A DNA stretch of 59,757 nucleotides, taken from positions 1 to 59,757 of IMG/VR virus record IMGVR_UViG_3300033143_004977; one strand, 5' to 3'. Below are positions 1,887 to 24,793 of this stretch, piece by piece. Source of the stretch: a virus. Its lineage: Duplodnaviria; Caudoviricetes. The position numbers and the translations under genes are program-made. The notes under the pieces are model-generated. The model was not told the origin of the DNA, made no database searches, and saw only the letters and a program-made list of their open reading frames with translations. Position 1 is the stretch's first letter. Every line of letters starts with the position of its first letter.

Positions 1887-2356
1887 TATTCTTTTTTAGA
1901 AGAATTTTCTTGAAGCAATGCTAACACTTGTCCTGCACTCAAATTATTTTTATCGTTTTCATCATTCGCGTAAATATTTTCTAATTCGTAAATCAATTTC
2001 TCATCATCTCTAATTTCTCGTGTCAATGCAATGATGAAACTATTGTCTCGATATCTTTTTTTCTTAACTTCAGCATTGTATAACACGCGATTATATTTTA
2101 ATCTAACAGAAATAGCATCAATTGCACCTTTGACTAATGATGTAGATGGGAATTGTAATTTATTATCAATCACCCATTTGACTGCTTTTTCAATTTCTTT
2201 TTTTGAACATTTATGATATGTTGAAATTTCAGTCCAATCCCATCGAAGAACGAAATATTTATGATAAATATCTAAATATGTTTCTTGTATAGAAGTCAAT
2301 AATATTTTTTCAACTTTTGCTCCTTTTTGTTTTTTCTTATAAACACCTGATGGCAT
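1886..2356 (-). CDS. Probable terminase small subunit
   Basis: 156 aa helical protein directly upstream of terL, overlapping its start. Confidence 0.6.
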   Translation of the reverse strand: MPSGVYKKKQKGAKVEKILLTSIQETYLDIYHKYFVLRWDWTEISTYHKCSKKEIEKAVKWVIDNKLQFPSTSLVKGAIDAISVRLKYNRVLYNAEVKKKRYRDNSFIIALTREIRDDEKLIYELENIYANDENDKNNLSAGQVLALLQENSSKKE

Positions 2357-2383
2357 ATATTTATTATTAATGATTATAGTACT

Positions 2384-2412
2384 ATTATACTATCAAAACA
2401 CGTCTATGTATA
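2384..2412 (-). promoter_or_regulatory. Sigma70-like promoter for the terminase genes
   Basis: TATACA-17 nt-TATAAT on the minus strand. Confidence 0.5.
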
Positions 2413-3032
2413 TAAAAACGAACCTAAATCAATTACTTATCACTTTTCAATATAATCCAATAATAGTAAGTGTTGTCACAAAATTCGAAGGACGATCGTT
2501 TGACAACAAGACAAAAACATGGTTTGTCCCAAATATTCATGTTATTAAAGTAGTTGATACATTAACACCTCTTGGATTTAAAGCAGACTCTGAAGTGTTA
2601 GAAATATATAATAAACGAATAGAAAAAAACAAAAACATAGAACTCTCTTTAGAAAAAACACCAAACAAAAAAATTCAAGAATTAGATCTTCCTTTGTTTG
2701 ATTTTCAAAAGAAGGGAGTGAGTTTTTTAAATGAAATAGGATCTGGTATACTTGGAGATGAACCTGGACTCGGGAAGACGTTACAGTCTTTAGCTGTTAC
2801 TTTATTAAACAAAAGCCAGAAAAATCTAATAGTCTGTCCTGCATCACTTAAGTTGCAGTGGGAAGAAGAAATTTTCAAATGGGTAAAAGATACAAAAGTA
2901 TACGTTGTGTCGGGCACTAAAAAACAAAGAGATATCATATATAACAAAGCTCTCAAAGAAAAAAAAGTATTTTATTTAATTATCAATTACGAACTCGTCC
3001 TTAGAGATGTTGAAATACTGAAACGATTTTAA
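2406..3032 (+). CDS. SNF2-family helicase, N-terminal half (HARP-like domain plus motifs Q, I, Ia)
   Basis: LFDFQKKGV, GILGDEPGLGKT, LIVCPASL, IINYE; stops just before Walker B. Confidence 0.85.
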   Translation: MYIKTNLNQLLITFQYNPIIVSVVTKFEGRSFDNKTKTWFVPNIHVIKVVDTLTPLGFKADSEVLEIYNKRIEKNKNIELSLEKTPNKKIQELDLPLFDFQKKGVSFLNEIGSGILGDEPGLGKTLQSLAVTLLNKSQKNLIVCPASLKLQWEEEIFKWVKDTKVYVVSGTKKQRDIIYNKALKEKKVFYLIINYELVLRDVEILKRF

Positions 3033-3035
3033 ACC

Positions 3036-3064
3036 TTTACAAACATAGAAAAGTATGGTATAAT
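3036..3064 (+). promoter_or_regulatory. Phage consensus promoter
   Basis: TTTACA-17 nt-TATAAT with extended -10 TG. Confidence 0.8.
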
Positions 3065-3071
3065 ATAAATA

Positions 3072-3233
3072 ATGAATAAAGAACAAAAAACAATTAAATT
3101 AAAAATTCACGCACAGGAAGATAGACTAAACATCATTGCTGCGCTAGCAAATAATGGATATAAAGTTTGGGTCGAAGAAGAAAAAGATAATATTTATAAC
3201 GTAACGTATTTTGTAATTTTTGAATATGAATAA
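3072..3233 (+). CDS. Small hypothetical protein, 53 aa
   Basis: ATG 7 nt after the -10 box; MNKEQKTIKLKIHAQEDRLNIIAALANNGYKVWV. Confidence 0.55.
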   Translation: MNKEQKTIKLKIHAQEDRLNIIAALANNGYKVWVEEEKDNIYNVTYFVIFEYE

Positions 3234-3399
3234 AAAAGAATTAACAATCGTAAAACAAGCATATAAAATTTTACATAAAGAAATCGATCAAAAAAGTTTT
3301 AGATGTAAAGAATACGGAATTGGTTGTTGTCAATGTGCATTTACCAGATTTATGGAAGAATTTAAAAGTATTATTGATTTATATTTAGATGATAAATAA
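3226..3399 (+). CDS. Small Cys-rich hypothetical protein, 57 aa
   Basis: Overlaps the previous stop; CKEYGIGCCQC. Confidence 0.5.
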   Translation: MNKKELTIVKQAYKILHKEIDQKSFRCKEYGIGCCQCAFTRFMEEFKSIIDLYLDDK

Positions 3400-3679
3400 A
3401 AACATGAATAAAAAAATAGAAATTTTAGCAAATGATATACTCGAGAATTCGGGAGTATATCGAAAATATTCTGATATGGATTTAGCAAATGCAATGCTCG
3501 TTTTTGTAGAAGTGTTCATGTCAAAAATATATGATGCTCATAAAAAAGAAATGTCTCAAAAACAACTTGAAGAATTGGCTAAGCAAGCAGGCGAAAAATT
3601 ACGAGAGATAGTTTTATTTTATACAGACGTTGATTTACACAAAGCAGTAAAGAACGAAGCCACTAACATACAAAAATGA
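3389..3679 (+). CDS. Hypothetical protein
   Basis: ORF track; operon-like packing. Confidence 0.6.
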   Translation: MINKNMNKKIEILANDILENSGVYRKYSDMDLANAMLVFVEVFMSKIYDAHKKEMSQKQLEELAKQAGEKLREIVLFYTDVDLHKAVKNEATNIQK

Positions 3680-3724
3680 TAATATTGAACTCAATTAGTT
3701 GTTAATCAATCTTAATAAATAACT

Positions 3725-3928
3725 ATGGAAGAAAAATCAATGAATAAACTTGTAGTAGAGTTTAAACATAAAAAAAGAAAATATGAAATTGATAAACTTT
3801 TAGATTCAAACGATGATAATTTTGGAAAATATGATATTTTTGATGTTACGAATAAAGAAGATTATGTTGGTTATATCAGCGCAAATTCAAACAAAACTGA
3901 AGATTTTTTAATCAAAGAAGCAAAGTGA
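3725..3928 (+). CDS. Hypothetical protein
   Basis: ORF track. Confidence 0.55.
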   Translation: MEEKSMNKLVVEFKHKKRKYEIDKLLDSNDDNFGKYDIFDVTNKEDYVGYISANSNKTEDFLIKEAK

Positions 3929-3964
3929 GAAATTGATAACATTGATTTATCTTAATAAATAAAC

Positions 3965-4195
3965 ATGAAACAATACAATCTAGGAAAAATATCAGATGAA
4001 AAAATTAAAGAAGCAGAAAAGTTAATTCGTCAAAATGGTGGTGTTATATATACTGATAATACATTTATAGTTCAAAAAATAAAAGGAAAATACGGAAGAA
4101 GCACTGATAATGATCTACTTATTAATATTACAGATAAACCATTTTTTCTTGGCTGGGGAACAATTGAAAGTCAATTAGCAAAATTTTTTAGTTAA
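3965..4195 (+). CDS. Hypothetical protein
   Basis: ORF track. Confidence 0.6.
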   Translation: MKQYNLGKISDEKIKEAEKLIRQNGGVIYTDNTFIVQKIKGKYGRSTDNDLLINITDKPFFLGWGTIESQLAKFFS

Positions 4196-4200
4196 ATACT

Positions 4201-4917
4201 ATGTACGATCAAATTCAAGAAGATATTGACAAATATCTAAAAGAAATTAAAAATCATAAGACTGAAAAAATAACATACAAGAAAAAGAAATATCTTGTAG
4301 AATTTGGTTTCGTTGGTCCAATAATAACAAAATGGGGAAAATTTCAACTTCATCCACTGAAAGTAAAGAACGGTAAGTGGGGTAGGCATTATTTTCTTAT
4401 TTATCCAGATTTAAAAACACTTCTAAAACAGAAAGAAATTCAAGTAAGAATAGAAAGTGGTTGTTATTCAGGAATGACATTAGGTGATAATACATGCGAT
4501 TGTCTTGGCCAATTACATAAAGGTCAAAAGTTATGTATTGAAAATGGATCTGGAATTATAATCAACATTCCAAAGCAAGATGGTAGGGGATATAACGAAG
4601 ATTTAAAGATGGCTAATCAGAAGATAATGGATGATTATGATCTAGACACTATCTTAACAGCTATCATGTTCTATGGAGATATTAGCAAGATAGATAAAAG
4701 AACGTATGTCGAAAGTATAATTTTATTAAAGGCACTGGGATTTAACAAGCATAAGATTTCTCTGTTAACGAATAATCCGTTAAAAATTGAAGCATTTAGA
4801 AATTCTGAATTTGAACTTGATAATCATAAATCGATCAAATCTAAAAATCATAATCAAGTTAAGAAACATCTAGACGCAAAGAAGAAATTCTGTAATCATA
4901 ATTTTAATATAAAATGA
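4201..4917 (+). CDS. GTP cyclohydrolase II (RibA)-like protein, divergent
   Basis: VRIESGC..TCDC Zn ligands, QDGRG, DKRTY, LLTNNPLK. Confidence 0.85.
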   Translation: MYDQIQEDIDKYLKEIKNHKTEKITYKKKKYLVEFGFVGPIITKWGKFQLHPLKVKNGKWGRHYFLIYPDLKTLLKQKEIQVRIESGCYSGMTLGDNTCDCLGQLHKGQKLCIENGSGIIINIPKQDGRGYNEDLKMANQKIMDDYDLDTILTAIMFYGDISKIDKRTYVESIILLKALGFNKHKISLLTNNPLKIEAFRNSEFELDNHKSIKSKNHNQVKKHLDAKKKFCNHNFNIK

Positions 4918-5222
4918 AAATAATAAAAGATAAATATTTACAAAAGAGAGGAGGGTCTGCTAAAATACTTAATATTTATTGTCAGAAATGTTTTAATAAA
5001 CTTTTTACATATCAAAAAGACGGTGTTGGACAATTGAAAAGATGTTATATTAATAGAATAACAGACAATATTAAGTTAATAGATAATGCATTATATTGTC
5101 CAAAATGTAAAGAAAGAATAGGATTTGGTATTATTCATACAGATAAAAGACAAACAATTAAACTAATACGAGGTACAATTATAAAAAAGAAATATGAATA
5201 CAGTAATAATCGTCGAAGGTAA
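4914..5222 (+). CDS. Zn-ribbon protein
   Basis: CQKC ... YQKDG ... CPKC. Confidence 0.6.
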   Translation: MKIIKDKYLQKRGGSAKILNIYCQKCFNKLFTYQKDGVGQLKRCYINRITDNIKLIDNALYCPKCKERIGFGIIHTDKRQTIKLIRGTIIKKKYEYSNNRRR

Positions 5223-5817
5223 AGCATGCTCGGGCAAGGAAACTATTGCTAAAAAATTTGCTAACGAAACAGGATATACTTACATAAATGCTGGTTTAAT
5301 TTTTAGAGGAACAATATATGCTGCTACTATTTCAAAGAGTGCTAGTTTGAATCAAGTACAATATATCTGGAAGAATGGAACATCATTCTTTTTACTTAAT
5401 GAAAAAGATATAACAAAAGAACTTTCTGCCTTATTTATTGGAGAATCAACAGCAGAAGTAGCAAGCACTAAAAAAGGTTTCTTGATGTTAACTAAGAATG
5501 TTAAGTTAATCTCAGAGAATTATGATAACATAATAGTAGATGGTATTGGTATGAGATCTATTTTTCCAGAAACTCAACATCGATTCTACTTACATGCTCC
5601 CATAGAAATTAGAGCAAAAAGAAGATTGAAAGATTTATTAAAACAAAATATTAAAACGACATATGAATTAGTCTATAAAGATCTCAAATATAGAGATAAG
5701 TGTGACACGGAAAGAAAATTCTGTCCTTTAGAAATATTAACAAGTCCAAACGTAATTGATACTTCAAAAACAACAATACAAGAATCTGTAAATATTATTA
5801 AACAAATAACAATATGA
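5194..5817 (+). CDS. Cytidylate kinase-like nucleotide kinase
   Basis: P-loop GKACSGKE, YINAGLIFR, YLHAPIEIRAKRR, RDKCD, IDTS. Confidence 0.8.
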   Translation: MNTVIIVEGKACSGKETIAKKFANETGYTYINAGLIFRGTIYAATISKSASLNQVQYIWKNGTSFFLLNEKDITKELSALFIGESTAEVASTKKGFLMLTKNVKLISENYDNIIVDGIGMRSIFPETQHRFYLHAPIEIRAKRRLKDLLKQNIKTTYELVYKDLKYRDKCDTERKFCPLEILTSPNVIDTSKTTIQESVNIIKQITI

Positions 5818-6506
5818 AAATAATTTACGAAATATTATATGGTAGTGATGCATATGGCACTACGATGAATGACAGTGATAATGATATTCGAGGAATAATG
5901 TTACCAACGATTGATGAATGTTTATCAATGAGAGAATTGCATGATGTCAGAAATATGGACGAGAACGAAGATAGAGTAATGTATTCTATTCAAAAATTTT
6001 TTAGATTAGCGATAAAATCAAATCCTTCTGTTTTCGAATGGTTATTCGTGCCAAATGAATGCATAAAAATAATGGAAGAGTCTGGTAAAATAATTAGACA
6101 TAATAGACTAATGTTTTTAAGCAAAGAAATATATCCAAGATTTAAAGGATTCGCAGAATCAGAATTTCATAAACTTACAAAACTTACTGGAAAAACAGGA
6201 GAAAAAAGAAAAAAACAAATATTAAAATATGGATATTCTTTTAAAAATGCAATGAACTGCATTAGAATATTAGAGCAAGGCGTAGAACTATTGAAAACGG
6301 GACATATTACAATGCCTAGATCAAATGCTGAAGAATTAAAAAATATAAAGAAAGGCGAATTTAGTTATAAAATGATTGTCGGTAGATTTCAAAGATTATT
6401 AGATGAATTAGACGATGCTAAAAAATATTCAAAACTGCCAGATAAACCAAGATTCAAAGACGCTGATAATTTAATGATTAATATTATAAAAGATTTTAAT
6501 AATTAA
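5814..6506 (+). CDS. Pol-beta superfamily nucleotidyltransferase (phage RlaP-like)
   Basis: YGSDAYG...DSDNDIRG motif; KSNPSVFEWLF; C-terminal LPDKP. Confidence 0.8.
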   Translation: MKIIYEILYGSDAYGTTMNDSDNDIRGIMLPTIDECLSMRELHDVRNMDENEDRVMYSIQKFFRLAIKSNPSVFEWLFVPNECIKIMEESGKIIRHNRLMFLSKEIYPRFKGFAESEFHKLTKLTGKTGEKRKKQILKYGYSFKNAMNCIRILEQGVELLKTGHITMPRSNAEELKNIKKGEFSYKMIVGRFQRLLDELDDAKKYSKLPDKPRFKDADNLMINIIKDFNN

Positions 6507-6670
6507 AAATCATGCTTAATTTTTTGAAAAGAAAAAAATACAAGAAGAAAAAGAAAATATTAAGAGTTTTCTCTGGAAAGAATTTGACAAAGAGATATTG
6601 AGATACTCTACTGGAAAATTTCCAGAGTTTTATAAAGAAAAAATTCTAAAAAATAGTTTTAAAAAATAAC

Positions 6671-6774
6671 AAAAGAGGTGCTTCGGTCTGGTACAGCGTT
6701 GCTTTTTTACGTTTCATAGGTATCCGAAGCTAAGTGATCTGAAGGTACCAATAGATCGATCAGCCTCTTTTTTT
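6671..6774 (+). ncRNA. Structured RNA or terminator-like element at the cassette 3' end
   Basis: Stems AAAAGAGG/CCTCTTTT, GCTTCGG/CCGAAGC, GATCT/AGATC; cross pairing TGGTAC/GTACCA; U-run. Confidence 0.55.
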
Positions 6775-6785
6775 AGATAAAAAGT

Positions 6786-7814
6786 ATGTTTGATACGATA
6801 ATTTGTGATGAGGCGACTCGCGTGAGTAACCCAAAAGCAAAACAATCTAAGCTAATCAAAACTATATCTAGCAAACATAAATATTGTTTAACGGGTACAC
6901 CGTTAAGTAATTCTATTCAAGACATTTGGAATTTACTTGATTTTTGTCAACCTGGTTTGCTTGGTAATTATTGGAAATTCACAGAAACCTACTGCGTCAA
7001 AGATCATTTTGGTGGGATCGTTGGATATAAAAATTTAAATAAATTGAAAGAAACACTTACGCATTATATGATTCGCAGATTGAAATCAGAAGTACTGACT
7101 GAACTTCCTGATAAAACGTATGAAAATATATATATTGAATTTACGTCTGCTGAAAGAAAGATATATAATTCTATACGTAAAGAAATAACAGAAGATTTAA
7201 AAAATCATAACATTGATAGTAAATATTTAAATAACGTTCTGGTTAAAATGATTCGACTAAAACAAACTACTTCAAGTTTAGAGTTGATTAGTGATATAAC
7301 AACATCGTCAAAGATAGTTGTCTTAAAAGAATTATTAACAGATATTCTTCACGAAAATAAAAAAGCAATTATTTTTACACAGTTTGCACGTATGGCAAAA
7401 ATATTACAACGTGAATTAGCTCAATATAAACCGTTGTTGTTGATTGGTGAAACATCTACAGAACAACGACAACACAATGTGCATGCTTTTACAAATAATG
7501 ATAGTCATCAATTAATAATTATAACCAGTGCAGGCGAGTTTGGAATAAATTTACAACGCGCTTCTCTTATTATCCACTACGATTTACCATGGAGTATCGC
7601 GAAAATAGAACAACGTGAAGGAAGATGTCATCGGATAGGGCAACATGAAAATGTCACAATTTTTAATTTATTAATGTCAAAAACAATAGATGAGTATGTG
7701 TTAAAAGTTTTACATAAAAAACAACAAATATCACGAGATCTATTAGGAGATAAAGAAAAAATCAAAAAAGTTAAAATTTCAAGACGCGATGTTAAACAAA
7801 TGCTAGGCATGTAA
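6786..7814 (+). CDS. SNF2-family helicase, C-terminal half (motif II onward plus HELICc)
   Basis: IICDEA, LTGTPLSN, MIRRLK, IIFTQF, GEFGINLQ, QREGRCHRIGQ. Confidence 0.9.
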   Translation: MFDTIICDEATRVSNPKAKQSKLIKTISSKHKYCLTGTPLSNSIQDIWNLLDFCQPGLLGNYWKFTETYCVKDHFGGIVGYKNLNKLKETLTHYMIRRLKSEVLTELPDKTYENIYIEFTSAERKIYNSIRKEITEDLKNHNIDSKYLNNVLVKMIRLKQTTSSLELISDITTSSKIVVLKELLTDILHENKKAIIFTQFARMAKILQRELAQYKPLLLIGETSTEQRQHNVHAFTNNDSHQLIIITSAGEFGINLQRASLIIHYDLPWSIAKIEQREGRCHRIGQHENVTIFNLLMSKTIDEYVLKVLHKKQQISRDLLGDKEKIKKVKISRRDVKQMLGM

Positions 7815-7816
7815 CA

Positions 7817-7845
7817 TTTACATAGTTAATAAAATATGTTATTAT
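7817..7845 (+). promoter_or_regulatory. Phage promoter (variant)
   Basis: TTTACA-17 nt-TATTAT. Confidence 0.5.
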
Positions 7846-7881
7846 ATATTTATAACATAAATATATGAAAAGTTATTTAAC

Positions 7882-8427
7882 ATGGACGAATACGAAAAAG
7901 TTAAACGTTTGTTAGATTGTATTTATTACGATTATTGCAATGAACGATACGCTGAAGCAATTCTTCAACTTGAAGAAGTGTGCAAAATTTTTATTCATAA
8001 ATATAATAAGAAAGGGGAAAACGCGACAATGACAAAAATAATTAGTTCAAAAATGAAAGAGAGCGCAATTGGTTATTATATAATTGCTAACGATCTATTG
8101 AACAATCCTATCCAATTGTATATTACTTCAATTGAACAAAAAGAAAGTATGTATAATGATGGTAAAGGAAAATTAAAGAATTTTATTTATTTTAAAGACA
8201 TAAATGGAAACGAAAAGTTAGCAACTGTCGGATTACAATCACCATTATTTAAAGAATTAACTAAGATAGATCCTGACCAGGGTGATTTGCTTGAAATTTG
8301 GACAGAAAGAGTAGAAAATAGTGATTTTTTAGATTGGAAAGTCAAAATCATTACGAAAGTTGAAGAAATTGATAGTGACACACCACAACAAAAAACAGGA
8401 TTGACTATTGATAATATTCCATTTTAG
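7882..8427 (+). CDS. Hypothetical protein; possibly SSB-like from the internal ATG at 8029
   Basis: Beta-rich C-terminal part ending DNIPF, like an SSB tail. Confidence 0.45.
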   Translation: MDEYEKVKRLLDCIYYDYCNERYAEAILQLEEVCKIFIHKYNKKGENATMTKIISSKMKESAIGYYIIANDLLNNPIQLYITSIEQKESMYNDGKGKLKNFIYFKDINGNEKLATVGLQSPLFKELTKIDPDQGDLLEIWTERVENSDFLDWKVKIITKVEEIDSDTPQQKTGLTIDNIPF

Positions 8428-8438
8428 ATGGTTAAACA

Positions 8439-8467
8439 TTTACAAAGTTAAAAAAGTATAGTACAAT
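8439..8467 (+). promoter_or_regulatory. Phage promoter (variant)
   Basis: TTTACA-17 nt-TACAAT, 6 nt before the ATG. Confidence 0.6.
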
Positions 8468-8473
8468 ATAACT

Positions 8474-8668
8474 ATGGTCGATAAACGAAAAAATAAAAAA
8501 ACGAAGGAAGAAATTGAAAAATTAAATGAATGGCGAAAAGATAAAGAAAAAGTAGCTCTAGCCAACAAAAGAATGGCAAAATCAAAAGTGTTGTATCATC
8601 TTAAAAATCTTGAAAAACGAAATAAACTACCACCTAAATCTAAACCGCATATAATAATTATAGAATAG
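8474..8668 (+). CDS. Small basic hypothetical protein
   Basis: ORF directly after the promoter. Confidence 0.5.
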   Translation: MVDKRKNKKTKEEIEKLNEWRKDKEKVALANKRMAKSKVLYHLKNLEKRNKLPPKSKPHIIIIE

Positions 8669-13061: not shown

Positions 13062-14119
13062 ATGAAAAGAACAATTAAATTTACGTTAAAATCAACGAAT
13101 ACGAATAAACTTAAGAAACTTGCGGGATTGAGAAAAGAATATGTTAATGCAGTAAATTTTTATATTAAACGACTTGTTATACAAAAAAAGTATATCTTGT
13201 CAGATCAAGAAGTTAAACAATTCGAATCAAAATTGTCTTATGGTTTTAAACAATGTGCTTATAGACAAGCAGAAAAAATCTGGAAAACTTGGAGAAGAAC
13301 TTATAAAAAGAATTCTAATATACCAAAATTTAAAGGAAGTATAATTTTAGATCAGAGATTCGTAACATTTGACAAAAGTAAAAATAGTTTTGATTATTGG
13401 ATAAAAATATCCACTTTAGAAAAAGGCAAACGTGTTAGCATTCCTTTAAATAGTTATGAATATGCTAATGAATATTTTAAGAGTTGGAAATTAGTTAATG
13501 GATGTAGATTGAAAAAGATTAACAATAATTGGACATTGTATTTAACTTTTGAAAAAGAAACACCTGTTTTAAAGAAAGACGGAAAGAAATTGGGATTGAT
13601 ATTGGAATAAAAAAATTAATGACTACTTCTAATAGAAGATATTATGGCAAAAAAATTGAAAATTTATTGGATAAAATTCAAAGAAAACAACAAAGTTCGA
13701 AAACATTTGATAGAGCATTGAAAGAACGAAATGAATATATCAATCGAGTCGTTAAAGAATTACCATACAATCGATTAAAAACAATTGTTATTGAAGACAT
13801 AAAAGATCTTTTTAGAATTTCTAAAAAGAAAAGAAAATTACGAAAAATACAAAGATCAAAATATCAACGATGGGTTTATGCTTATCTATTTGAAAGAATA
13901 AAACAACTGACAGAAGCAACTGGCGTCCATGTTGTGTCAGTCAATCCAGCTTACACTTCACAAAAGTGTAGTGAGTGTGAGTTTATCCACAAGTTAAATA
14001 GGAAAGGTGAGAACTTCTTTTGTAGGAATTGTGGCTACAAATCAGATGCTGATTTTAATGCATCTAAGAATATTCTTCAATCTTATTTAACGCAGGAGCT
14101 TATTCTTCCCTGCAAGTAA
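13062..14119 (+). pseudogene. tnpB: TnpB/Cas12f-like RNA-guided nuclease split by a -1 frameshift near 13570-13590
   Basis: RuvC-I GIDIG in the -1 frame, IVIED, PAYTSQKCSEC, FFCRNCG, DADFNAS; no tnpA. Confidence 0.85.
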
Positions 14120-17562: not shown

Positions 17563-18449
17563 AAAAAACAGAAATTATTTTAGGAGGAGGCATAGCTGGA
17601 TTATTGTGGCATTATTTTAATCCCAAAAGTGTTATTATTACAGACAGAATAGGGGGACAGTTTTTAACAAAATTTCAACTTGGGCCAAAATATATACATA
17701 TCGATAAATATACTACAAGATTTTTCAAAGAAATTGATCTTAAACCAAATATTAAAAAAATAAAAATAGGTTTCTTTTATGATGGTAAATTGCATTCTAA
17801 AAATACTGAAAAAAATCGTAAAAAATATTTTGAAAAGACAAGAGGAAACATAAAAGAAATATATTATTCTGCAATGTCTGCAGATAAAACAGAATTTGAT
17901 TCTTATGATATATCTATAAACAAAATCATTGAAAAAATAAAAATAGAAGATAGAGTACTTCTGGAAAAAGTAAATAATATAAATCTTGAAAATAAAAAAA
18001 TAATAACTAATTCTACTGAAATAACATTCGATAAATTAGTTTCTACTATACCTTTGAATACTTTTTTATATTTGGCAGACAGATCTAATATCACTAATCA
18101 ATTTAAATCTTATCCAACTACATTTGTTTTAAGTTCCAATTATAAAAATTGCCCTTTCAATGATTTCAAAGATTTTGATTATGTATATTTTTCAGAAGAA
18201 AAATATCCATTTCATCGTATAACGAAAACTGAAAAGGGTTTAGTATTTGAATTTAAAGGAGATGTCATATATCCTATTATCAATGAAAAAGATAGAATAA
18301 TAATGAAAGTCGGGCAATTAATTCAAAATGATCTAAATATTAATTTTGAAAATGTTAATTTTTTTGGAAGATATGGTTGCTGGAAACATAAAATTAAAAT
18401 AAATGATTTATTAAAAGAACTTTATGAAAACACTAAAAAAAATATTTAA
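17559..18449 (+). CDS. FAD-dependent oxidoreductase, UDP-galactopyranose mutase-like
   Basis: IILGGGIAGL, IGG, GPKYIH, LVSTIPL, FFGRYGCWK. Confidence 0.7.
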   Translation: MKKTEIILGGGIAGLLWHYFNPKSVIITDRIGGQFLTKFQLGPKYIHIDKYTTRFFKEIDLKPNIKKIKIGFFYDGKLHSKNTEKNRKKYFEKTRGNIKEIYYSAMSADKTEFDSYDISINKIIEKIKIEDRVLLEKVNNINLENKKIITNSTEITFDKLVSTIPLNTFLYLADRSNITNQFKSYPTTFVLSSNYKNCPFNDFKDFDYVYFSEEKYPFHRITKTEKGLVFEFKGDVIYPIINEKDRIIMKVGQLIQNDLNINFENVNFFGRYGCWKHKIKINDLLKELYENTKKNI

Positions 18450-19395
18450 AGAACAAAAAGAATTTCAAAGATTCTTTTACGATCCAGACAATATAAATGA
18501 AAAAGACAAAATAAAATTTACAAAAGAATATATTTTGTCAATACATAGAGAATTAAGTGAAGTGCTTGATACTATATCCTGGAAAATACATAGAAAAGAA
18601 GATAAAATAATTTCTGAGACTAATACGAAAGAAGAAATAATAGATTGTTTTAAATTTTTATTGAATTTATGCATTATTTGGAAAATAGATGAAGAAGAAT
18701 TTGCAAAAGAATTTTTCAGAAAATCCGCTGTAGTTAGACAACGATATAATCAAGAAATATTGAACTCTATTAAAAAGGATGATTTAATATGTGCAATAGA
18801 TTTAGATGACACTCTTTCAAATTCTTCAGAATATTTTACAAAAATTTATAATGAAAAATACAATACTATTTTTAAAAATAGAAAAGAAATAAAAGAAAAA
18901 GTACCAATATTAGAATATGAAAAATTTAAACACTATTTTAGAGAATCTGGTGAAAAAATAAATATACCAATCAAAGAGAATGCAAAAGAATTATGTGTCT
19001 TTCTTAAAAAACTTGGATATAAAATAATAATTATTTCATCCAGACCATATAAAACATATTCAAGAATTTATTCTGATACATTAGAATGGCTTAATAATAA
19101 TAATGTTCAATATGATTCATTGTATTTTGAAGAAAATAAACATCTTAAAATATTAAAGTTTTTACCTAATATGTCATTTATTATTGAAGATGATTTAAAA
19201 TATGCAATACAAATATCAGAACAAAAATATAAAGTATATTTACTGTCTTCTCTCAAAACAAACATGGAAAACATAGACACAAAATATATACATAAAATAA
19301 ACAGTTTAAATGAAATGATTAATATTTTAAAAAATGAAGAATCTTCAGGAAAAATTAAAAGAAAAACTGAACAGTTGCAACAGTTGCCCATTTGA
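18424..19395 (+). CDS. Dimeric dUTPase/MazG-like domain fused to a HAD 5'-nucleotidase-like domain
   Basis: ELSEVLD..WKIH..EEIIDCFKF; IDLDDTL, ISSR, IIEDD. Confidence 0.8.
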   Translation: MKTLKKIFKEQKEFQRFFYDPDNINEKDKIKFTKEYILSIHRELSEVLDTISWKIHRKEDKIISETNTKEEIIDCFKFLLNLCIIWKIDEEEFAKEFFRKSAVVRQRYNQEILNSIKKDDLICAIDLDDTLSNSSEYFTKIYNEKYNTIFKNRKEIKEKVPILEYEKFKHYFRESGEKINIPIKENAKELCVFLKKLGYKIIIISSRPYKTYSRIYSDTLEWLNNNNVQYDSLYFEENKHLKILKFLPNMSFIIEDDLKYAIQISEQKYKVYLLSSLKTNMENIDTKYIHKINSLNEMINILKNEESSGKIKRKTEQLQQLPI

Positions 19396-19885
19396 AGATT
19401 ATGAAATAAACTGGGAAGATGAAAAAACAGGAACTGGTAAATTATGTGCATATATTTATCCAGAAAGCGATTGTTCAGTAATGGTAATTGGGCAAAATCC
19501 TTCTCATAGAAGATATAGGGGAACTCATGCAATGAATGGTAAACAAGGTGATATATTTAGAGAAATATTTGGTAAAAGTCGTTTGGTTTTTACGAATCTT
19601 ATACAAATTTCAACGCCAGATAATAAAGTAGATCATTTAACAAACCAACAAATTGAGCATTGTATAAAACATTTACTTTATGAAATCAAAGAAATAAAAC
19701 CAAAATTGATAATAGTATGCAGTTATTTTGCAAAAAGAAAACTCAACGAGCTTAATTATAGATTAGATATAACTGGTTCTATAGTTAAATTCATTAAACA
19801 CCCTGATTATTATTTATCATATCAAAAAGGAAACATTAACGAATATTATAAAGAAATAATAAATATTAAAAAAGAATGTCTATGA
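19334..19885 (+). CDS. Uracil-DNA glycosylase superfamily protein (family 4/5-like)
   Basis: CNSC, VMVIGQNPS, FTNL, IKPKLII, KHPDY. Confidence 0.75.
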   Translation: MKNLQEKLKEKLNSCNSCPFEDYEINWEDEKTGTGKLCAYIYPESDCSVMVIGQNPSHRRYRGTHAMNGKQGDIFREIFGKSRLVFTNLIQISTPDNKVDHLTNQQIEHCIKHLLYEIKEIKPKLIIVCSYFAKRKLNELNYRLDITGSIVKFIKHPDYYLSYQKGNINEYYKEIINIKKECL

Positions 19886-20331
19886 AAAGAAATTTTTATC
19901 TTATTTTTGAAGGAATAGATAGAGTTGGAAAAACGACTACTAGAAAATTAGTCGAAAAAGAAAGAAATGTAAAAGACACTGGTATTGATAGATTTATTGG
20001 TTCGAGCATAGTATATGGTAAGATATACAAAAGATACTCTAAAAAAGAATTTGAAAAACTGTACAATGATGAATATCTTTTTTCGACGACATTTGATACT
20101 ATTTTAATTTTTCTTTATTCTTCTGTAGACATAACTATTAAACGAATTGAAGAAAGCGGACATGAAAAAATAGATAAAAAACTTCTTACTGAAACATTAA
20201 AAGAATTTAATAATTATTATGAAAAATCTAGTTTTAAAAATAAAATTAAAATCGACACTGGTAAATATTCACAAAAAGAAGTAGTTGAGAAAATTTTAAA
20301 TTATTTAAAAAAAATAGAAAAAAATATATGA
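19876..20331 (+). CDS. Thymidylate/dNMP kinase-like protein
   Basis: IFEGIDRVGKTT, DRF..S..VYG, IDT. Confidence 0.8.
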   Translation: MSMKRNFYLIFEGIDRVGKTTTRKLVEKERNVKDTGIDRFIGSSIVYGKIYKRYSKKEFEKLYNDEYLFSTTFDTILIFLYSSVDITIKRIEESGHEKIDKKLLTETLKEFNNYYEKSSFKNKIKIDTGKYSQKEVVEKILNYLKKIEKNI

Positions 20332-21170
20332 AAATACTTATAACAGGTTCTAAAGGTGCAATAGGCTCATATTTGACACCTTATTTGAAAAAGAAATATG
20401 AAGTCATAGAAATTATTTCGGACATATCTAATTATTCTGATTTGAAAAGCAAAATAGAAAAACACAAAGAAGCTGATTGGATTATTAATTTAGCAGCTTT
20501 AGTAAATACTATAACATGTGATATTGCTGGCAGATATGCGTTTGATGTAAACGTCAAAGGAGCATATAATGTTGCGATAATATCTAAAGAATTTAAAATA
20601 AAACATTGTTTTTTTTCGACTACTGCTATTTATAAACCGAATATTTTAATTAAAGAAGAATCAGAAAAAAATCCACAGACTCTATATGGTTTTACAAAAT
20701 ATCTTGGTGAAAAAACAGTCGAATTTGTTTATAAAGACCAAAAAGAAAATCTATTGATTATAAGACCTTGTTTTATTTTCGGTGGTAAAAACGATCATTC
20801 AATTGGTTCCTTGATTGTTAAGTCTGCAATTAAACAAATACCTTTAGTTATTTTATTAGATCCAGAAAACAAAAAAGATTATATGCATATCACTAATTTT
20901 TCTGAAGCGATTTATAAATTAATAGAAAAAGACGCTAGTGGAGATTATAATATCAGTTATGGCAAACCAATTAAATTTAAAGAATTAGTCGATAAAGTCA
21001 AAAAAATGAATTTAAATCCAATAATATATTATAGACCAGAAGAAGACTATATGAAAAATCACATAGTTGATAATTCTAAATTGAAAAATATAATAAATTG
21101 GAACCCAACTATTACTTTAGATGATGGATTAAAAGAAGTTTTTAAAAATATAACAAAAAAACATGAATGA
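20328..21170 (+). CDS. NAD-dependent nucleotide-sugar epimerase/dehydratase (extended SDR)
   Basis: ITGSKGAIG, INLAA, STTAIY, YGFTK, YNI. Confidence 0.9.
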   Translation: MKILITGSKGAIGSYLTPYLKKKYEVIEIISDISNYSDLKSKIEKHKEADWIINLAALVNTITCDIAGRYAFDVNVKGAYNVAIISKEFKIKHCFFSTTAIYKPNILIKEESEKNPQTLYGFTKYLGEKTVEFVYKDQKENLLIIRPCFIFGGKNDHSIGSLIVKSAIKQIPLVILLDPENKKDYMHITNFSEAIYKLIEKDASGDYNISYGKPIKFKELVDKVKKMNLNPIIYYRPEEDYMKNHIVDNSKLKNIINWNPTITLDDGLKEVFKNITKKHE

Positions 21171-22203
21171 TGATGAAAAAAATGAATTTCGAAAATTATT
21201 ACACACTCTTCCTGAACAAGTACCAAAATTAGACATGAATGAAATTAATTCTTTTATAGAAAATGAAGAAAAATGGAAAAAAAATGAGTTTGGTATAAAA
21301 ATAGGGCCTTTTCAATTTTATGAAGGAGTCAAAGGATTGACAGTCGAAATGATTGATTTTCCAAAAAATCCATATATGCTTCTTTATGAATTCGCTGTCG
21401 CGACTTGGGGAAATGAAGAATATCCAAGTATGTGGAGTAAAACGAAACCAGAACATCGATTCGTTGTAGTTAAAAATGTTTTAGAAGGGAAAGCACTTCC
21501 TCTTGGTAAAGAAGCATTACAATTTAGTTTTATTATTAGAAAAGCAAGTCGTGCTTCATTTGACCAACATGCAAGACAGAGAATAGGTGCTACATTTGCA
21601 AGCCAGGGTGTTAGAGATAATTCAAGACTTCTTGCAGGATTTAGAGTACCAAACGAAATTTGGAAAAATGAAGAAAAATTAAAAAAAGTAATAAAAATGA
21701 ATTTGTTGCTTAAAAAAATATATTATGAATTAATCAGTTCTGAAAAAAATAATAATTCGTTTCAAGCAGCAAGATGTATGATGACAATGAATTGGACACA
21801 TAATTATAAATACACTGTAAATTATATGGCATTAGGAAGTTATATGGCCCAACGTTTAGTAGCATCTGAACAAGAAGACACTGTAGCAACAGCGATAGGC
21901 ATATGGAATCAAATAAATAAAAAATTTCCTCTTCTTGCTAATTTTTTAAGGCCAAAATGTGATTGGGCTGGTAAATGCAAATGTCATCAAGGAGACGGTG
22001 GTGAATTATTCGGAGCATTATTTAAAGGTTGTGGTAGATTTCCAGAAACAGAAGGAAAATATGCTACTTTTAATTGGGCATGTACAGATTATAATACATT
22101 AGAAAAACAATCAATGATTCATTTACCAAATCCAGATGAATGGAAAACATATAATACTTTAAAAGATTTAACAGAAGAAGATCAAAAATTATTTGAAGAA
22201 TAA
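21163..22203 (+). CDS. Divergent flavin-dependent thymidylate synthase (ThyX)-like protein
   Basis: FSFII..ASRASFDQHARQR..FASQGVRD; QAARCMM; QRL; LRPKC. Confidence 0.7.
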   Translation: MNDDEKNEFRKLLHTLPEQVPKLDMNEINSFIENEEKWKKNEFGIKIGPFQFYEGVKGLTVEMIDFPKNPYMLLYEFAVATWGNEEYPSMWSKTKPEHRFVVVKNVLEGKALPLGKEALQFSFIIRKASRASFDQHARQRIGATFASQGVRDNSRLLAGFRVPNEIWKNEEKLKKVIKMNLLLKKIYYELISSEKNNNSFQAARCMMTMNWTHNYKYTVNYMALGSYMAQRLVASEQEDTVATAIGIWNQINKKFPLLANFLRPKCDWAGKCKCHQGDGGELFGALFKGCGRFPETEGKYATFNWACTDYNTLEKQSMIHLPNPDEWKTYNTLKDLTEEDQKLFEE

Positions 22204-24793
22204 TATGACAATAAAAAATATTAAACCAGTATGTGGTTGGGATGATCAAAAAAAGATATATTTGGTTCATCATAAAAACAATAAGAAAAAAATTTGTATA
22301 ATAGATAATTTTGAATGGTATTTTGTAATTAAAAAAGAAGATTTTGAAAAAGAAAAAATAAAAAATATTCTGTTAAAATCAGAATGTTTTTTGAGAAAAG
22401 TAAAAATTAAAAATAATTTTGCTAAAATACATTGTATGAAAAATGTACCATATTTACTTGGCAAATTATTCAAAGAATTAAAAAAAGAATCAGTAAAATT
22501 ATATGAAACAGACATATCTTTAATAAAAAGATATATGATTGATAATAAAATAGAAATAGAAGAAAATTTATCTATTCTTTTTTTTGATATAGAGACAGAT
22601 GATACAGACGATGGCATAACAATAGGAAAGAATAGAATTCTTTCATGGGCAGCATGTGATACAAATAAAAATATTTTTTATGATACTAGCAAAGATGAAA
22701 AAAAATTGATATTAAGTTTATTAAAAAAAATATCAGAATATGATATAATAGTTGGCTGGAATTCAAAGAATTTCGATATGCCTTATATAAAAAAAAGAGT
22801 AGAATACCATAATATATGTGGCAAAAAAAATAAAAAAATAGTTCCATTAGAAGAAACTAATTTCTGGAAAAAAATAATGCATGTAGATATGATGCAGAGA
22901 TTAATTAAACTTTTTGGGCCAATGATGACTATTATCAATTTGCCAGGATTTAGTTTAAATGATGTTTCTTTTACTTTTTTAAATGAAAAAAAAGTAGAAC
23001 ATGAAGAAAAAATAATAGAAATGTATAATAATAATCCAGAGAAACTTAAAAAATATAATATACAAGATGTTGTTCTTTTATATAAATTGAATGAAAAATT
23101 AAGAACATTGCCTCTAATGATTAAAGAATGCAGTTGGACAGGAACATTCATAGATAGATTTTTTATTGGTGAACTTTTAGATAATTATATTTTAAGAGAA
23201 GCTAATGAAAAAAAACTTCATTTGTTTTCACGACCTGATTTCGAACAACAAGAAAAAACAAAAAAATTAAGAGTAAGAGGAGGTTATGTTATGGAACCTG
23301 TTACTGGAATGTATGATTATATTAGAGTAATGGATTATAAAAGCCTTTACCCGTCTATAATAGTTAGTTGGAACATTGGACAAGAATCATTAATTGAAAA
23401 TGAAATATCTGTTAAAGCAAAAGAAAATTTTGATAAATGGCTTGGAGATAGAAAAATCGAAGAAGTAAATTATAAAGAATGGCATGATTTTCTTAAAAAA
23501 GAAAATCTAAAGTATAACCAGAAAAATGAATATTATCAAACTGCTAATAATCAGTATTTTAAAAAAGAACCAATAAGCGTAGTAAGTGATCTTGTCAACA
23601 ATCTTCTTAATGAAAGAAAGTCTTATAAAAAACAACAACTTGAATCGAAGTACAATTCATTAGAATATAAAAATGCACAAGCTTCACAAGAAACAGTGAA
23701 AGAGATGGCAAATAGCATTTATGGAATTTGCGCTGATAAAAAATCAAGATATTTTGATCCTAGAATTGCAGAAGCTATAACATTAACAGGACAGTTCATG
23801 AATAGAACAGCGGTTGATATTATTGAAAAGATGAAATATAAAGTAATATATTGTGACACGGATTCTGTTTTCACCAGAATAAAGAATGATACTGAAATGA
23901 AAAAAGTAACAGAAAAAGTAAATAAAAATCTTTCAGTATTTCTAATGAAAAAATATAATTTTAAAAAATATATCATTAATTTAGAATACGAAAAGAAATT
24001 CAAAAAATTTATTATGATTGACAAGAAAAGATATTCTGGTTATTTGACTGAAGCTGATGGAAAACCAGTAGATTCTATTTTGTCTAAAGGAATTGAAAAT
24101 GTCAGAAAGAATACAATTATTTTTACTAAAAATAAAATGAATGAACTATTAAATCTTATTTTAAAGAAGAATAAAAAATCAAAATATTTAAAAGAATGGA
24201 TTCTCAGTTTAAAAAAGTATGTTTTAAATAATAAAATAAAACCAGAAAATTTGTCTATAACAATGAAACTTTCTAAACCCACTACTAGTTATAAATCAAA
24301 ACCACCTCATGTAAGATTGGCTGAAAAACTTATAAAAGAAAAGAAAATATTAGAAACACAAGAAGGAAAACATAATTGGGGGCAAAAAATAGAATATATT
24401 ATTACAGATAGCAAAAATAAAATGGAATCTGTATTAACAAGCGAATACAATGGTAAATGGGATCGAAATTATTATTGGGACGTTCAAATATATGCTCCAT
24501 TAATGAGAATTTTAAAAGCATGTTTTCCAAAACAAGATTGGGAAAAGTATAGTATAACTTTATATGAAAGAAAATTATTAAAAAAAGAAAAAGAAGAAGC
24601 AAAAATAAAAAGAGAAAAAGAGAGAGAAATCAAAAGAAAAATAAGAGAAAAAAATAAAAAAGAAAGAGAAAAAAATAAAAAAAGAAAAGAATTAGAAAGA
24701 ACTAAAAAATTAAAATTAAAAGAAAAAATCAAAAAACAAAAAGAAAAATTAAAAGAAAAAAAAGAAGCGAAACAGAAAAGTGAAATTTATTAA
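22193..24793 (+). CDS. polB: Family B DNA polymerase
   Basis: Exonuclease FDIETD, NSKNFD, YNIQD; polymerase DYKSLYPS, KEMANSIYG, YCDTDS, KKRY. Confidence 0.95.
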   Translation: MKNNMTIKNIKPVCGWDDQKKIYLVHHKNNKKKICIIDNFEWYFVIKKEDFEKEKIKNILLKSECFLRKVKIKNNFAKIHCMKNVPYLLGKLFKELKKESVKLYETDISLIKRYMIDNKIEIEENLSILFFDIETDDTDDGITIGKNRILSWAACDTNKNIFYDTSKDEKKLILSLLKKISEYDIIVGWNSKNFDMPYIKKRVEYHNICGKKNKKIVPLEETNFWKKIMHVDMMQRLIKLFGPMMTIINLPGFSLNDVSFTFLNEKKVEHEEKIIEMYNNNPEKLKKYNIQDVVLLYKLNEKLRTLPLMIKECSWTGTFIDRFFIGELLDNYILREANEKKLHLFSRPDFEQQEKTKKLRVRGGYVMEPVTGMYDYIRVMDYKSLYPSIIVSWNIGQESLIENEISVKAKENFDKWLGDRKIEEVNYKEWHDFLKKENLKYNQKNEYYQTANNQYFKKEPISVVSDLVNNLLNERKSYKKQQLESKYNSLEYKNAQASQETVKEMANSIYGICADKKSRYFDPRIAEAITLTGQFMNRTAVDIIEKMKYKVIYCDTDSVFTRIKNDTEMKKVTEKVNKNLSVFLMKKYNFKKYIINLEYEKKFKKFIMIDKKRYSGYLTEADGKPVDSILSKGIENVRKNTIIFTKNKMNELLNLILKKNKKSKYLKEWILSLKKYVLNNKIKPENLSITMKLSKPTTSYKSKPPHVRLAEKLIKEKKILETQEGKHNWGQKIEYIITDSKNKMESVLTSEYNGKWDRNYYWDVQIYAPLMRILKACFPKQDWEKYSITLYERKLLKKEKEEAKIKREKEREIKRKIREKNKKEREKNKKRKELERTKKLKLKEKIKKQKEKLKEKKEAKQKSEIY

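Follow-up and report, generated by a model that had tools for sequence, protein, structure and literature searches.

How can a helicase gene be cut within its catalytic domain, and what becomes of the two halves? In a virus of the Caudoviricetes (IMG/VR record IMGVR_UViG_3300033143_004977; the whole stretch analysed, of 59,757 nucleotides, is referred to here as the window), the halves of an SNF2 helicase gene form two ORFs, with 3.75 kb of DNA and nine ORFs of the same strand between them. We conclude that the locus is a variant of the known genes-in-pieces arrangement. Probably, the two polypeptides reassemble, and the split allele arose once, most likely through a homing endonuclease gene (HEG), was spread by recombination, and received its cargo later.

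Results

The two pieces and their junction

The N-terminal piece (N-piece; 2406..3032, + strand) codes for 208 residues, ends with ..RDVEILKRF and is closed by TAA (3030-3032). Because all homologues begin with MYI or MQI, its true start is placed at the ATG at 2406 rather than at 2370, where the ORF also allows one. A HARP-like N-terminus is followed by motif I (GLGKT) and the opening strands of RecA lobe 1, and the piece corresponds to positions 2-123 of the 290 of SNF2-rel_dom (Pfam, 8.7e-18). The C-piece (6786..7814, + strand; 342 aa) has its own ATG, starts with MFDTIICDEA, and continues from the strand TIIC through motif II (DEAT) and motif III to RecA lobe 2 with QREGRCHRIGQ; it corresponds to positions 128-286 of the same domain (1.3e-31), followed by Helicase_C (5.4e-24). 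Both RecA lobes of an SNF2 ATPase core are present, distributed over two ORFs, and the break falls inside RecA lobe 1, one beta-strand ahead of motif II (DEAx). Removal of the insert restores the reading frame exactly; moreover, in the Bacillus phages KLEB27-3 and Edson both pieces match a single unbroken gene, the matches abutting with 0 codons missing or extra (tblastn). The clean split with next to no loss of codons that had been predicted from the window alone is thus borne out by the ORF ends, by the complementary Pfam halves and by the alignment to uninterrupted genes. The last 47 residues of the N-piece (2889..3029, + strand; KVYVV..IY.KALKEKKVFYLIINYEL..LKRF) include a 5-residue insertion, and this junction tract is, as judged from the alignments, the signature of the split allele.

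The same break in relatives

The break lies at the identical residue in 18 C-pieces (that of the window, 15 others and those of two further loci, L008 and L087) and in 16 N-pieces (the window, 13 others and the same two loci). Among the best 120 C-piece homologues, 16 are split, 99 whole and 5 ambiguous; the split ones (337-350 aa) start with M(F/W)(D/N)..DE at a common alignment column, and the whole ones are 535-569 aa long. Fourteen N-pieces (208-220 aa) all terminate in ..xF, as do those of L008 and L087, while one sequence in the same alignment, P0135, terminates elsewhere. N- and C-pieces were found on contigs matching in size (58346, 28781 and 6453). The split forms have their own stop and their own ATG at the junction in every case, a methionine standing there in 18/18 split against 0/99 whole forms, and the columns of the 5-residue insertion are filled in the split forms and in only 3 of the 99 whole ones. 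The helicase homologue closest to that of the window is 76% identical; 7 C-pieces and 9 N-pieces of the clade to which the window belongs (57-76% identity) come from split genes, and all motifs are intact in split relatives down to 41-46% identity.

Trees (FastTree or IQ-TREE 'quick') differ between parts of the gene. When the 42 columns of the tract are used, the 16 split N-pieces all group together (on a starred branch, 96) and the split state needs a single change; the upstream N part requires 7 changes and the C part 12, of which starred branches make at least 8-9 unavoidable. A single split clade is rejected for the C part (delta lnL 972, p-AU 2.3e-6, the AU test having been run after the first tree had been inspected). 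Pairwise comparisons show where identity changes along the gene. In four split N-pieces, identity to a whole relative is 75-87% upstream and only 38-48% within the tract, and P0132 and P0133 share 66% upstream against 96% in the tract (Fisher p 1e-5). When the DNA of L087 is compared with that of L084, a whole form, identity on the N side drops from 100% to 44% nearing the junction; on the C side it is 70-75% over the first 120 nt and 96-100% further on. As DNA, the tracts of three split alleles are not especially alike (49-58% identity). Because the tract forms one clade and the rest of the gene is polyphyletic, the data point to recombination having spread one split allele, in the manner of homing with co-conversion. 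The characters that give the tract a single origin are those of the protein, and selection for fragment assembly could in principle produce them convergently.

Endonucleases in the gap

The gap of L008 measures 436 nt and is nearly all one HNH ORF (PF01844, above cut-off) with NUMOD3, which overlaps the ATG of the C-piece by 44 nt. That of L087 (1432 nt) holds a Vsr/DUF559 endonuclease ORF beginning at the N-piece stop, plus one further ORF. In the gap of the window, no nuclease domain was found in the nine ORFs at E<=0.01 (Pfam, PHROGs, NCBIfam), and no HEG remnant was detected (tblastn, best E 0.06). That an HEG made the first split is inferred for the window's lineage from relatives of the L008 and L087 type, which are only 41-60% identical. 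As a separate observation, HNH is found in the window genome in at least three free-standing genes and within a RecA intein.

Content of the window's gap

A promoter-like site (3036..3064, + strand; TTTACA-17-TATAAT with TG), the best in the region at 11/12, opens the insert. The pattern TTTACA-N16-18-TAHAAT has 10 matches in the window against 0.88 expected, and the copies at 3036, 13011, 28449 and 37585 have AAAAGTATGGTATAAT in common. The phage promoter claimed at this place is therefore real as a member of a repeated motif family, which appears to be the phage's own promoter family. Since the ATG at 3072 sits 8 nt past the -10 box, the mRNA would be near-leaderless.

The cargo lies entirely on the + strand and begins with five small ORFs from the ORF list (3072-3233, 3220-3399, 3389-3679, 3725-3928 and 3965-4195), for which Pfam and NCBIfam yield weak sub-threshold matches but no family at E<=0.01; the first matches phrog_3253, a family of unknown function. 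They are followed by a GTP cyclohydrolase II-like protein (4201..4917; 238 aa; PF00925, 2.1e-16), which matches RibA models below the NCBIfam cut-offs and in whose translation a C-x10-C-x-C motif is visible, presumably a zinc site. Then come a Cys-rich ORF (4914..5222; 102 aa) with two CxxC pairs and only weak matches, a (d)CMP kinase-like protein (5194..5817; 207 aa; PF02224, 7.8e-32; 112.7 bits to TIGR00017, under the cut-off of 135.55) and an RlaP-family nucleotidyltransferase (5814..6506; 230 aa; PF10127, 2.9e-27; phrog_388, 2.7e-51). The G+C content of the insert is 26.8%, against 29.2% in the remainder of the window. A search for the cargo genes in the related loci found none except the first ORF, which matches L246. 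The nearest homologues of the RlaP protein, 89% and 86% identical, are located on other contigs, and because 89% exceeds the 76% of the nearest helicase, the cargo does look like later-acquired genes. Of the recent moron insertion suggested by the original prediction, the late arrival of the cargo after the split seems to stand, but the split itself is old and shared, and was not made by the cargo.

Between the cargo and the C-piece lies a non-coding spacer (6507..6785, + strand) with a small hairpin (6611-6625), a possible frameshifted small ORF (6513-6669) and a branched structure (~6667-6775) with T7 (6768-6774) behind its closing helix, the ATG coming 11 nt on. The structured RNA proposed to precede the ATG is retained in so far as this T-tailed fold is better than that of shuffled sequences, but only moderately so (z -2.5, 5/200 as good), and it matches no Rfam family; the spacer has no similar sequence in the rest of the window or in the loci. 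No promoter-like site was seen ahead of the C-piece ATG. Transcription of the C-piece probably occurs by read-through, from the gap promoter and from upstream, passing the T-tailed element, which possibly attenuates transcription.

Selection and complex modelling

When the first 120 nt of the C part are set aside, 13 synonymous changes but 0 non-synonymous ones (dN = 0) separate the split L087 from the whole L084, which shows purifying selection in this pair. A complex model of the two chains rebuilds RecA lobe 1, with an ipSAE of 0.80 against 0.00 for the best control; this mark is attained by 116/157 solved complexes and by 2/215 mismatched pairs. At least 97% of the contacts agree between runs, the partner pLDDT is at least 77, and strand 139-143 of the N-piece pairs with residues 3-7 of the C-piece. 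A pass was expected because the pieces resemble single-chain SNF2 structures, and it may stem from the model having memorised these. The functional two-piece helicase envisaged in the original prediction is supported by the break being kept in 18 C- and 16 N-pieces, by the dN of zero and by the model passing its controls. The two ORFs would be translated separately, into polypeptides of 208 aa and 342 aa that reassemble as one working helicase.

Discussion

Several other explanations of the locus have been weighed against the genes-in-pieces reading. If the insert were a self-splicing (group I or group II) or intron-like element with cargo, splicing of the RNA would rebuild the frame; the exact restoration of the frame and the structured RNA at the 3' end of the insert agree with this, and an SNF2/DarB-like helicase gene is among the phage genes known as intron hosts, according to the legend of Figure 3 in PMC12350094. 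However, Rfam intron families give no match between 2000 and 8500 with the limit set at E<=1, none at either end with E<=10 and none window-wide at gathering level. Neither end of the insert nor any part within it thus resembles such a family: Intron_gpI, with its P3-P9 core, gives no match even at E<=10 at the insert ends, and group II introns are likewise without an Rfam match, Pfam detecting no RVT domain among the nine ORFs. Neither a recombinase nor a target duplication was found at the insert, as the original prediction had likewise reported along with the lack of an intron core. Moreover, the nine ORFs stand behind their own promoter, the immediate stop and ATG of all split forms would be needless in a spliced transcript, and the homologous gap of L008 is filled almost wholly by an HNH ORF that runs into the C-piece. 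The details that had suggested an intron carry little: the 8-nt complementarity between CAAACATA and TATGTTTG is present, yet 180/2000 shuffles of the 40-45-nt ends have one as long or longer, which is chance level, and an exon ending in U with an insert ending in G is weightless in DNA of ~27-30% G+C. We therefore regard splicing of the RNA as extremely improbable. Joining of the polypeptides by a split intein, as in the 'fractured genes' described in PMC2677866, is refuted by the sequence, and we give it practically no credence: the pieces total 550 aa with no extra residues, whole relatives having 550-556 aa, and no intein or Hint domain is found in either piece (Pfam). Distant SNF2 relatives (L013 and L040) do show that arrangement, an N-intein, a DUF559/Vsr-like ORF and a C-intein, a few residues downstream of the window's break.

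It is very unlikely, too, that the nine-gene cassette itself split an intact helicase in the window's lineage, the likeness to other loci reflecting an insertion hot spot. The absence of an HEG from the gap, the promoter directly after the N-piece stop and the nearer relatives of the cargo elsewhere would all suit such an event. Against it, the junction (xF-stop, ATG-TTT) is residue-identical in all 18 C-pieces and 16 N-pieces, the window's tract with its insertion clusters with all other split forms, and the RlaP homologues lie on contigs of other sizes than those of the clade's split pieces. Since relatives within the window's clade are already split, the split is older than the cassette, unless all members of the clade carry the cassette. 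A disruption inside the catalytic domain might also leave a dead helicase, both pieces being decaying remnants. We consider this very unlikely, as both pieces are stop-free, the motifs are kept across distant split relatives, the L087/L084 pair has no non-synonymous change in the C part and the same three proteins are recorded on 6-7 contigs.

Genes-in-pieces formed through free-standing HEGs include, according to a review (PMC2988022), the nrdA gene of Aeh1 split by mobE, the T4 topoisomerase genes 39/60 with mobA and gene 43 of Aeromonas phage 25 with a seg-like gene. As in the cases outlined there, the interruption falls in a critical region of a gene that relatives have uninterrupted, the two ORFs having their own stop and start and no codon being lost; in relatives of the window an HEG, of the HNH or another type, occupies the gap, the flanks are co-converted, and the HEG of L087 starts in overlap with the stop ahead of it, which is what is described for nrdA/mobE. 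The locus of the window differs from those cases in that the interrupted gene encodes an SNF2 helicase and is broken within RecA lobe 1, the gap lacks an HEG and contains instead a promoter and nine cargo genes in 3.75 kb, and the split allele occurs in many diverged backbones with a junction tract of single origin. Activity of the two-piece NrdA of Aeh1 has been shown, according to the same review, whereas for the helicase of the window it is a prediction. The fractured genes of Dassa et al. (2009; PMC2677866) mostly depend on split inteins. They are likewise DNA-metabolism genes of phages or metagenomes, with a Vsr-like or other HEG between the halves as in L087, and an intein-less SbcD-like case with a Vsr-like endonuclease has extra residues adjoining its fracture, comparable to the 5-residue insertion; however, the pieces in the window lack inteins, and a true SNF2 fractured form is seen only in the distant L013 and L040. 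The term 'SNF2' has 0 occurrences in the main text of PMC2677866. Self-removing elements in SNF2 genes also represent selfish elements that target conserved helicase motifs, but they are excised from RNA or protein; in the window nothing is lost and two polypeptides must assemble.

In the history that we propose, the split allele would have had a single origin, most likely through insertion of a free-standing HEG, and would have moved among diverged phage SNF2 genes by recombination, co-converting the junction flanks, which comprise ~47 codons ahead of the junction, the stop, the initial ATG-TTT and as much as ~110 nt on the downstream side. The split would then have become fixed in the window's lineage, with no recognisable HEG left, and the gap would have turned into a neutral landing place, now occupied by a phage-type promoter and, behind it, nine cargo genes, probably including nucleotide-metabolism functions. 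More speculatively, and in our opinion doubtfully, the nine-gene cassette may itself have spread by trans-homing, with no recombinase or transposase, the gap serving as a cargo bay at a homing site: double-strand-break repair with co-conversion of the flanks would copy the content of the gap into the unsplit helicase genes of co-infecting phages, the endonuclease coming in trans from a different phage or locus. If true, this would be a new kind of hitch-hiking gene cassette.

For the genes-in-pieces reading itself, the locus presents a natural and widely replicated P-loop helicase, cut in the first RecA lobe and apparently still under selection, which may help in the study and design of split ATPases. 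The spread of a split allele can be traced in the sequences with unusual clarity, one junction tract being present in many gene backbones, and the locus reveals the fate of a split scar after the loss of its endonuclease: the gap cannot close without a donor allele and is therefore a site at which phage genes may be added at no further cost. It also carries a warning for annotation, in that 'truncated' SNF2 ORFs in these uncultivated phages would be the halves of one enzyme.

A SNF2 helicase in two pieces

The window carries one SNF2 helicase as two ORFs: an N-piece on the + strand, running from ATG 2406 to a TAA at 3030-3032 and ending ..RDVEILKRF, and a C-piece, running from ATG 6786 to 7814 and beginning MFDTIICDEA. 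An in-frame ATG upstream of the N-piece, at 2370, is a start used by no homologue. In Pfam, the N-piece covers positions 2-123 of the 290-position SNF2-related domain, and the C-piece covers positions 128-286 of the same domain and then Helicase_C. By tblastn, both pieces match a single uninterrupted gene in deposited phages, with the matches adjoining codon for codon in KLEB27-3 and Edson, two Bacillus phages. The 3753 bases between the pieces hold nine same-strand ORFs and a 279-nt non-coding tail. Thus, the ORF ends, the placement of the Pfam halves, the adjoining tblastn matches and the nine-ORF insert all bear out the original observation that the helicase is split by a multi-gene insert. 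The record (59.8 kb) is estimated to be about half complete, and is that of a tailed phage with a B-family DNA polymerase, a primase-helicase, RecA, RtcB and several DNA-modification-type genes. A megablast of 2000-8500 against a phage collection gave no match and a single-protein scan of viral contigs found no relative; a scan of genome contigs returned one close locus, L162, in which the gene is whole.

The same break in related loci

Among the best 120 homologues of the C-piece, 16, the window's included, are 337-350 aa long and start with Met at the identical alignment column, in the pattern M-F-D-T-I-I-x-D-E-A (W replaces F in one). Whole proteins of at least 535 aa account for 99 more, and the other five are fragments that were left unclassified. 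The search with the N-piece gave 14 proteins of 208-220 aa (45-100% identity, the window's own included), all ending ..x-F at one alignment column. For three N/C pairs the longest contigs are equal in length (58346, 28781 and 6453), which places both pieces of each pair on the same contigs. The column of the C-piece Met holds Met in none of the 99 whole proteins (E in 28, D in 22, K in 22 and others in 27), and at the next position W prevails in the whole proteins (96 of 99) and F in the split forms (17 of 18). Moreover, the window lies in split-only clades of seven C-pieces (support 98) and nine N-pieces (support 100), both at 57-76% identity, so that the split has long been inherited in its lineage.

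Scans of IMG/VR with the C- and N-piece alignments yielded 80 and 41 loci, among which only L008 is split here; gap contents were compared in this locus, on a viral contig, and in L087, a split locus on a metagenome contig. In L008, 436 nt separate the end of the N-piece (..ILVDF-TGA) from the start of the C-piece. An ORF of 154 aa fills this gap; it has an HNH domain (PF01844, above cut-off), matches several PHROG HNH families (best 7e-13), gives a weak NUMOD3 match, and overlaps the C-piece by 44 nt in a different frame. In L087, the gap is 1432 nt; its first ORF, of 206 aa and with a Vsr (PF03852) and a DUF559 domain, begins at the stop codon of the N-piece, and its second (213 aa) has no assigned function.

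Distant SNF2 relatives (about 36% identity) at L013:8056-10969 and L040:63-2985, and also in L014 and L029, show the true 'fractured gene' form. Their fracture comes after DEIHK, a few residues further downstream than the break in the window, and the order is an N-piece ending in an N-intein fragment (CFDY..), a DUF559/Vsr-like ORF, and a C-piece opening with a C-intein fragment (..VHN, then C). The SNF2 motif II region is thus the target of at least two kinds of element. The short contig L082 (1-240) has an apparently whole-type junction (..EINKIEWDYIVADEA) and an upstream frame unlike the usual N part (..IIFIPNAT..), and could represent either an arrangement of a third kind or a recombinant.

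One junction tract in many backbones

With the junction columns excluded, the C-part tree requires 12 changes of the split state among 122 rows, at least eight of them forced by well-supported branches (FastTree); a 49-row tree (IQ-TREE, quick search) again requires 12, at least nine of them forced. The best tree uniting the 18 split forms is worse by 972 log-likelihood units (p-AU 2.3e-6, in a test run after the first tree had been seen). The N part upstream of its last 47 residues requires seven changes. Conversely, on a tree of just these last residues of the N-piece (42 columns once those with indels are removed), a single branch (support 96) sets off all 16 split N-pieces. This tract, next to the junction, also has a 5-residue insertion common to the split forms and present, in partial form, in three of the 99 whole proteins.

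Four of the split N-pieces can be paired with a close relative that is whole, and in each pair identity falls on entering the tract: from 75% upstream to 48% (P0132 and whole P0018), from 81% to 45% (P0133 and whole P0029), from 87% to 40% (P0134 and whole P0040), and from 87% to 38% (L087 and whole P0020). Between split forms the gradient is reversed, identity between P0132 and P0133 rising from 66% upstream to 96% in the tract (p 1e-5), and that in the four pairs of P0126 or P0127 with P0128 or P0129 rising from 66-68% to 91-96%. Compared as DNA, L087 (split) and L084 (whole) agree on the N side at 96-100% over the first 135 nt compared, at 71-80% over the next 135 nt and at 44-53% over the last 150 nt before the junction; on the C side they agree at 70-75% over the first 120 nt (dS 1.30) and at 96-100% from there on (dS 0.118). 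The simplest reading of these sequences is that the split allele arose once, and that the junction with a few hundred bases of flank would later have been recombined into different helicase backbones. Such copying resembles homing: as described in the T4 review (PMC2988022), co-conversion of flanks accompanies endonuclease-driven homing. Convergence, under selection for assembly of the fragments, could in principle account for the protein characters of the tract. The tract DNA of the three split alleles compared is mutually just 49-58% identical, which argues against recent transfer among those three. Two whole forms, P0114 and P0116, have a 4-residue insertion where the split forms have five, and ..DF at the junction; such proteins may descend from a split allele by re-fusion or resemble its ancestor.

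Probable two-piece function versus splicing, bypass or decay

An intron-like element was among the readings originally offered, with an 8-nt complementarity between the insert ends as one sign of it. That complementarity is at chance level, since 180 of 2000 shuffles did as well or better, and it was all that a search of the insert ends for inverted terminal repeats or a target duplication returned. Covariance searches at four Rfam settings agree with the failure of the sequence-only reading to find a catalytic core: no intron family was found at E<=1 over 2000-8500, at E<=10 with each insert end searched separately, or at gathering level across the whole window. The strongest evidence comes from the relatives, in which the stop and start at the junction are conserved; a spliced gene would need neither. 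The gap of L008 has no space for an intron core. On these grounds the intron reading was rejected. Joining by an intein was rejected as well, as neither piece has a Hint or intein domain and the piece lengths already sum to 550 aa, against 550-556 aa in whole relatives; ribosomal bypass was rejected solely on the 3.75-kb distance.

A dead gene is likewise not what the pieces look like. Every helicase motif is kept in both across relatives down to 41-46% identity and, past the first 120 nt of the C part, split L087 and whole L084 differ by 13 synonymous and no non-synonymous changes, which favours function in two pieces; decay was rejected on these two results. A predicted complex of the N- and C-pieces, built with two alignments, reached an ipSAE of 0.80, where the best of three controls scored 0.00 (in the benchmark, the ipSAE mark is reached by 116 of 157 solved complexes and two of 215 mismatched pairs), with at least 97% contact agreement between runs and partner pLDDT of at least 77. 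In the model, the sheet of RecA lobe 1 is rebuilt by pairing of strand NLIVC (N-piece, 139-143) with DTIIC (C-piece, 3-7). The heterodimer originally proposed for modelling thus passes its controls, but two halves of a single-chain fold can score well because the model has already learnt that fold, and the prediction is one of likeness to the single-chain fold and not of binding.

The cassette and its genome

Cargo in the window's gap comprises five small ORFs without assigned function, a GTP cyclohydrolase II-like protein, a Cys-rich ORF, a (d)CMP kinase-like protein and an RlaP nucleotidyltransferase (5814-6506). None of the gap ORFs has a nuclease domain by Pfam, PHROGs or NCBIfam at E<=0.01, and no remnant of a homing endonuclease gene was found in the spacer or the small ORFs with the endonucleases of L008 and L087 as queries. 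Against the related loci, ORF1, the first small cargo ORF, matches L246 and the others have no homologue. The closest homologues of RlaP (89% and 86% identical) are on contigs that match none of the helicase clade's contigs in length, and the closest helicase piece is 76% identical, against 89% for the closest RlaP. From these sequences we infer that the cargo probably came after the split and differs between relatives. Foreign origin by base composition was rejected, because the difference in G+C (26.8% for the insert versus 29.2% for the rest of the window) is not distinctive. PADLOC recognised no defence system in the cargo; the kinase is weakly VakA-like.

A putative promoter, TTTACA-17-TATAAT preceded by TG, lies 4 nt past the N-piece stop and is the best of the region; the first cargo ATG is 8 nt downstream of its -10 box. 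The motif family has 10 members in the window, against 0.88 expected, and the copies at 13011, 28449 and 37585 have a common 16-nt core, AAAAGTATGGTATAAT. The predicted phage promoter at the start of the insert is therefore upheld as a putative site and, belonging to the phage's own motif family, it ties the cassette into the phage's transcription programme. Near-identical promoter-like sites at 3036, 8439, 13011, 28449 and 37585 (TTTACAAA..AAAAGTATGGTATAAT) each head a gene block, often with an ATG just 8-25 nt on, a spacing that suggests short-leader or leaderless mRNAs. Since Shine-Dalgarno sequences are generally absent from this phage's genes, the C-piece is not unusual in having a bare ATG.

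In the 279-nt tail are a small hairpin and, at about 6667-6775, a branched structure with a run of seven T (6768-6774) behind its closing helix; the run stops 11 nt short of the ATG. The structured RNA predicted about 10 nt before the ATG stands as a fold better than that of shuffles (z -2.5), but it has no match in Rfam, and the search for homologues gave none from which covariation support could be drawn. As a guess, it might be a partial terminator or a processing site tuning the level of the C-piece. At 6513-6669, a one-base shift in an A-run would fuse two overlapping frames (MLNFLKRKK.. and ..IQEEKENIKSFLWKEFDKEILRYSTGKFPEFYKEKILKNSFKK, the latter running to a stop) into an ORF of about 52 aa; a tenth small gene, a pseudogene and a slippery site are the candidates for this stretch.

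Elsewhere in the window, RecA (33894-35735, 613 aa) is interrupted by an intein (Intein_splicing 125-356) that itself encloses an HNH_3 endonuclease, a free-standing HNH_3 ORF (33540-33884) lies directly upstream of RecA, and two further free-standing HNH endonuclease ORFs lie at 27408-28145 and 45757-46302; nucleases of the homing type, which could act in trans, are plentiful in this genome. A 166-aa ORF at 13619-14119 has a Cas12f1-like/TnpB TNB domain (PF07282, 1.5e-18), is far below full TnpB size and is perhaps a fragment or else a minimal relative. Nucleotide and DNA-modification-type genes cluster at 18424-27264 and 42096-43042 (dUTPase_2, UDG-like, thymidylate kinase-like, epimerase, Thy1-like, TET-associated glycosyltransferase, PIG-L and two phosphoribosyltransferases), which suggests modified DNA; the cargo kinase and cyclohydrolase may feed the same chemistry. 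RlaP owes its name to RNA-repair gene neighbourhoods, and with the RtcB RNA ligase encoded outside the cargo (38025-39215) it may act as a pair in RNA repair, countering for instance defences that cut tRNA.

Relation to known genes in pieces

In the literature, free-standing HNH or Vsr-like endonuclease genes between the halves of a phage gene are termed 'genes-in-pieces' (PMC2988022), the same layout with split inteins is termed 'fractured genes' (PMC2677866), and inteins and a group II intron are known in SNF2-type genes. On those descriptions, the arrangement in the window is of the same kind as nrdA/mobE of Aeh1, 39/60/mobA of T4, gene 43 of phage 25 and the intein-less SbcD case of Dassa et al. 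(PMC2677866). In the literature searched, with subscription journals outside its coverage, we found no description of a SNF2 helicase split by a homing endonuclease gene. We consider it likely that the window encodes a two-piece, endonuclease-derived helicase. Unlike the known systems, the host gene is here a SNF2 helicase broken inside a RecA lobe, the window's gap is without an endonuclease and has expanded to nine promoter-led cargo genes and, as the sequence record has it, one junction tract is found in many backbones.
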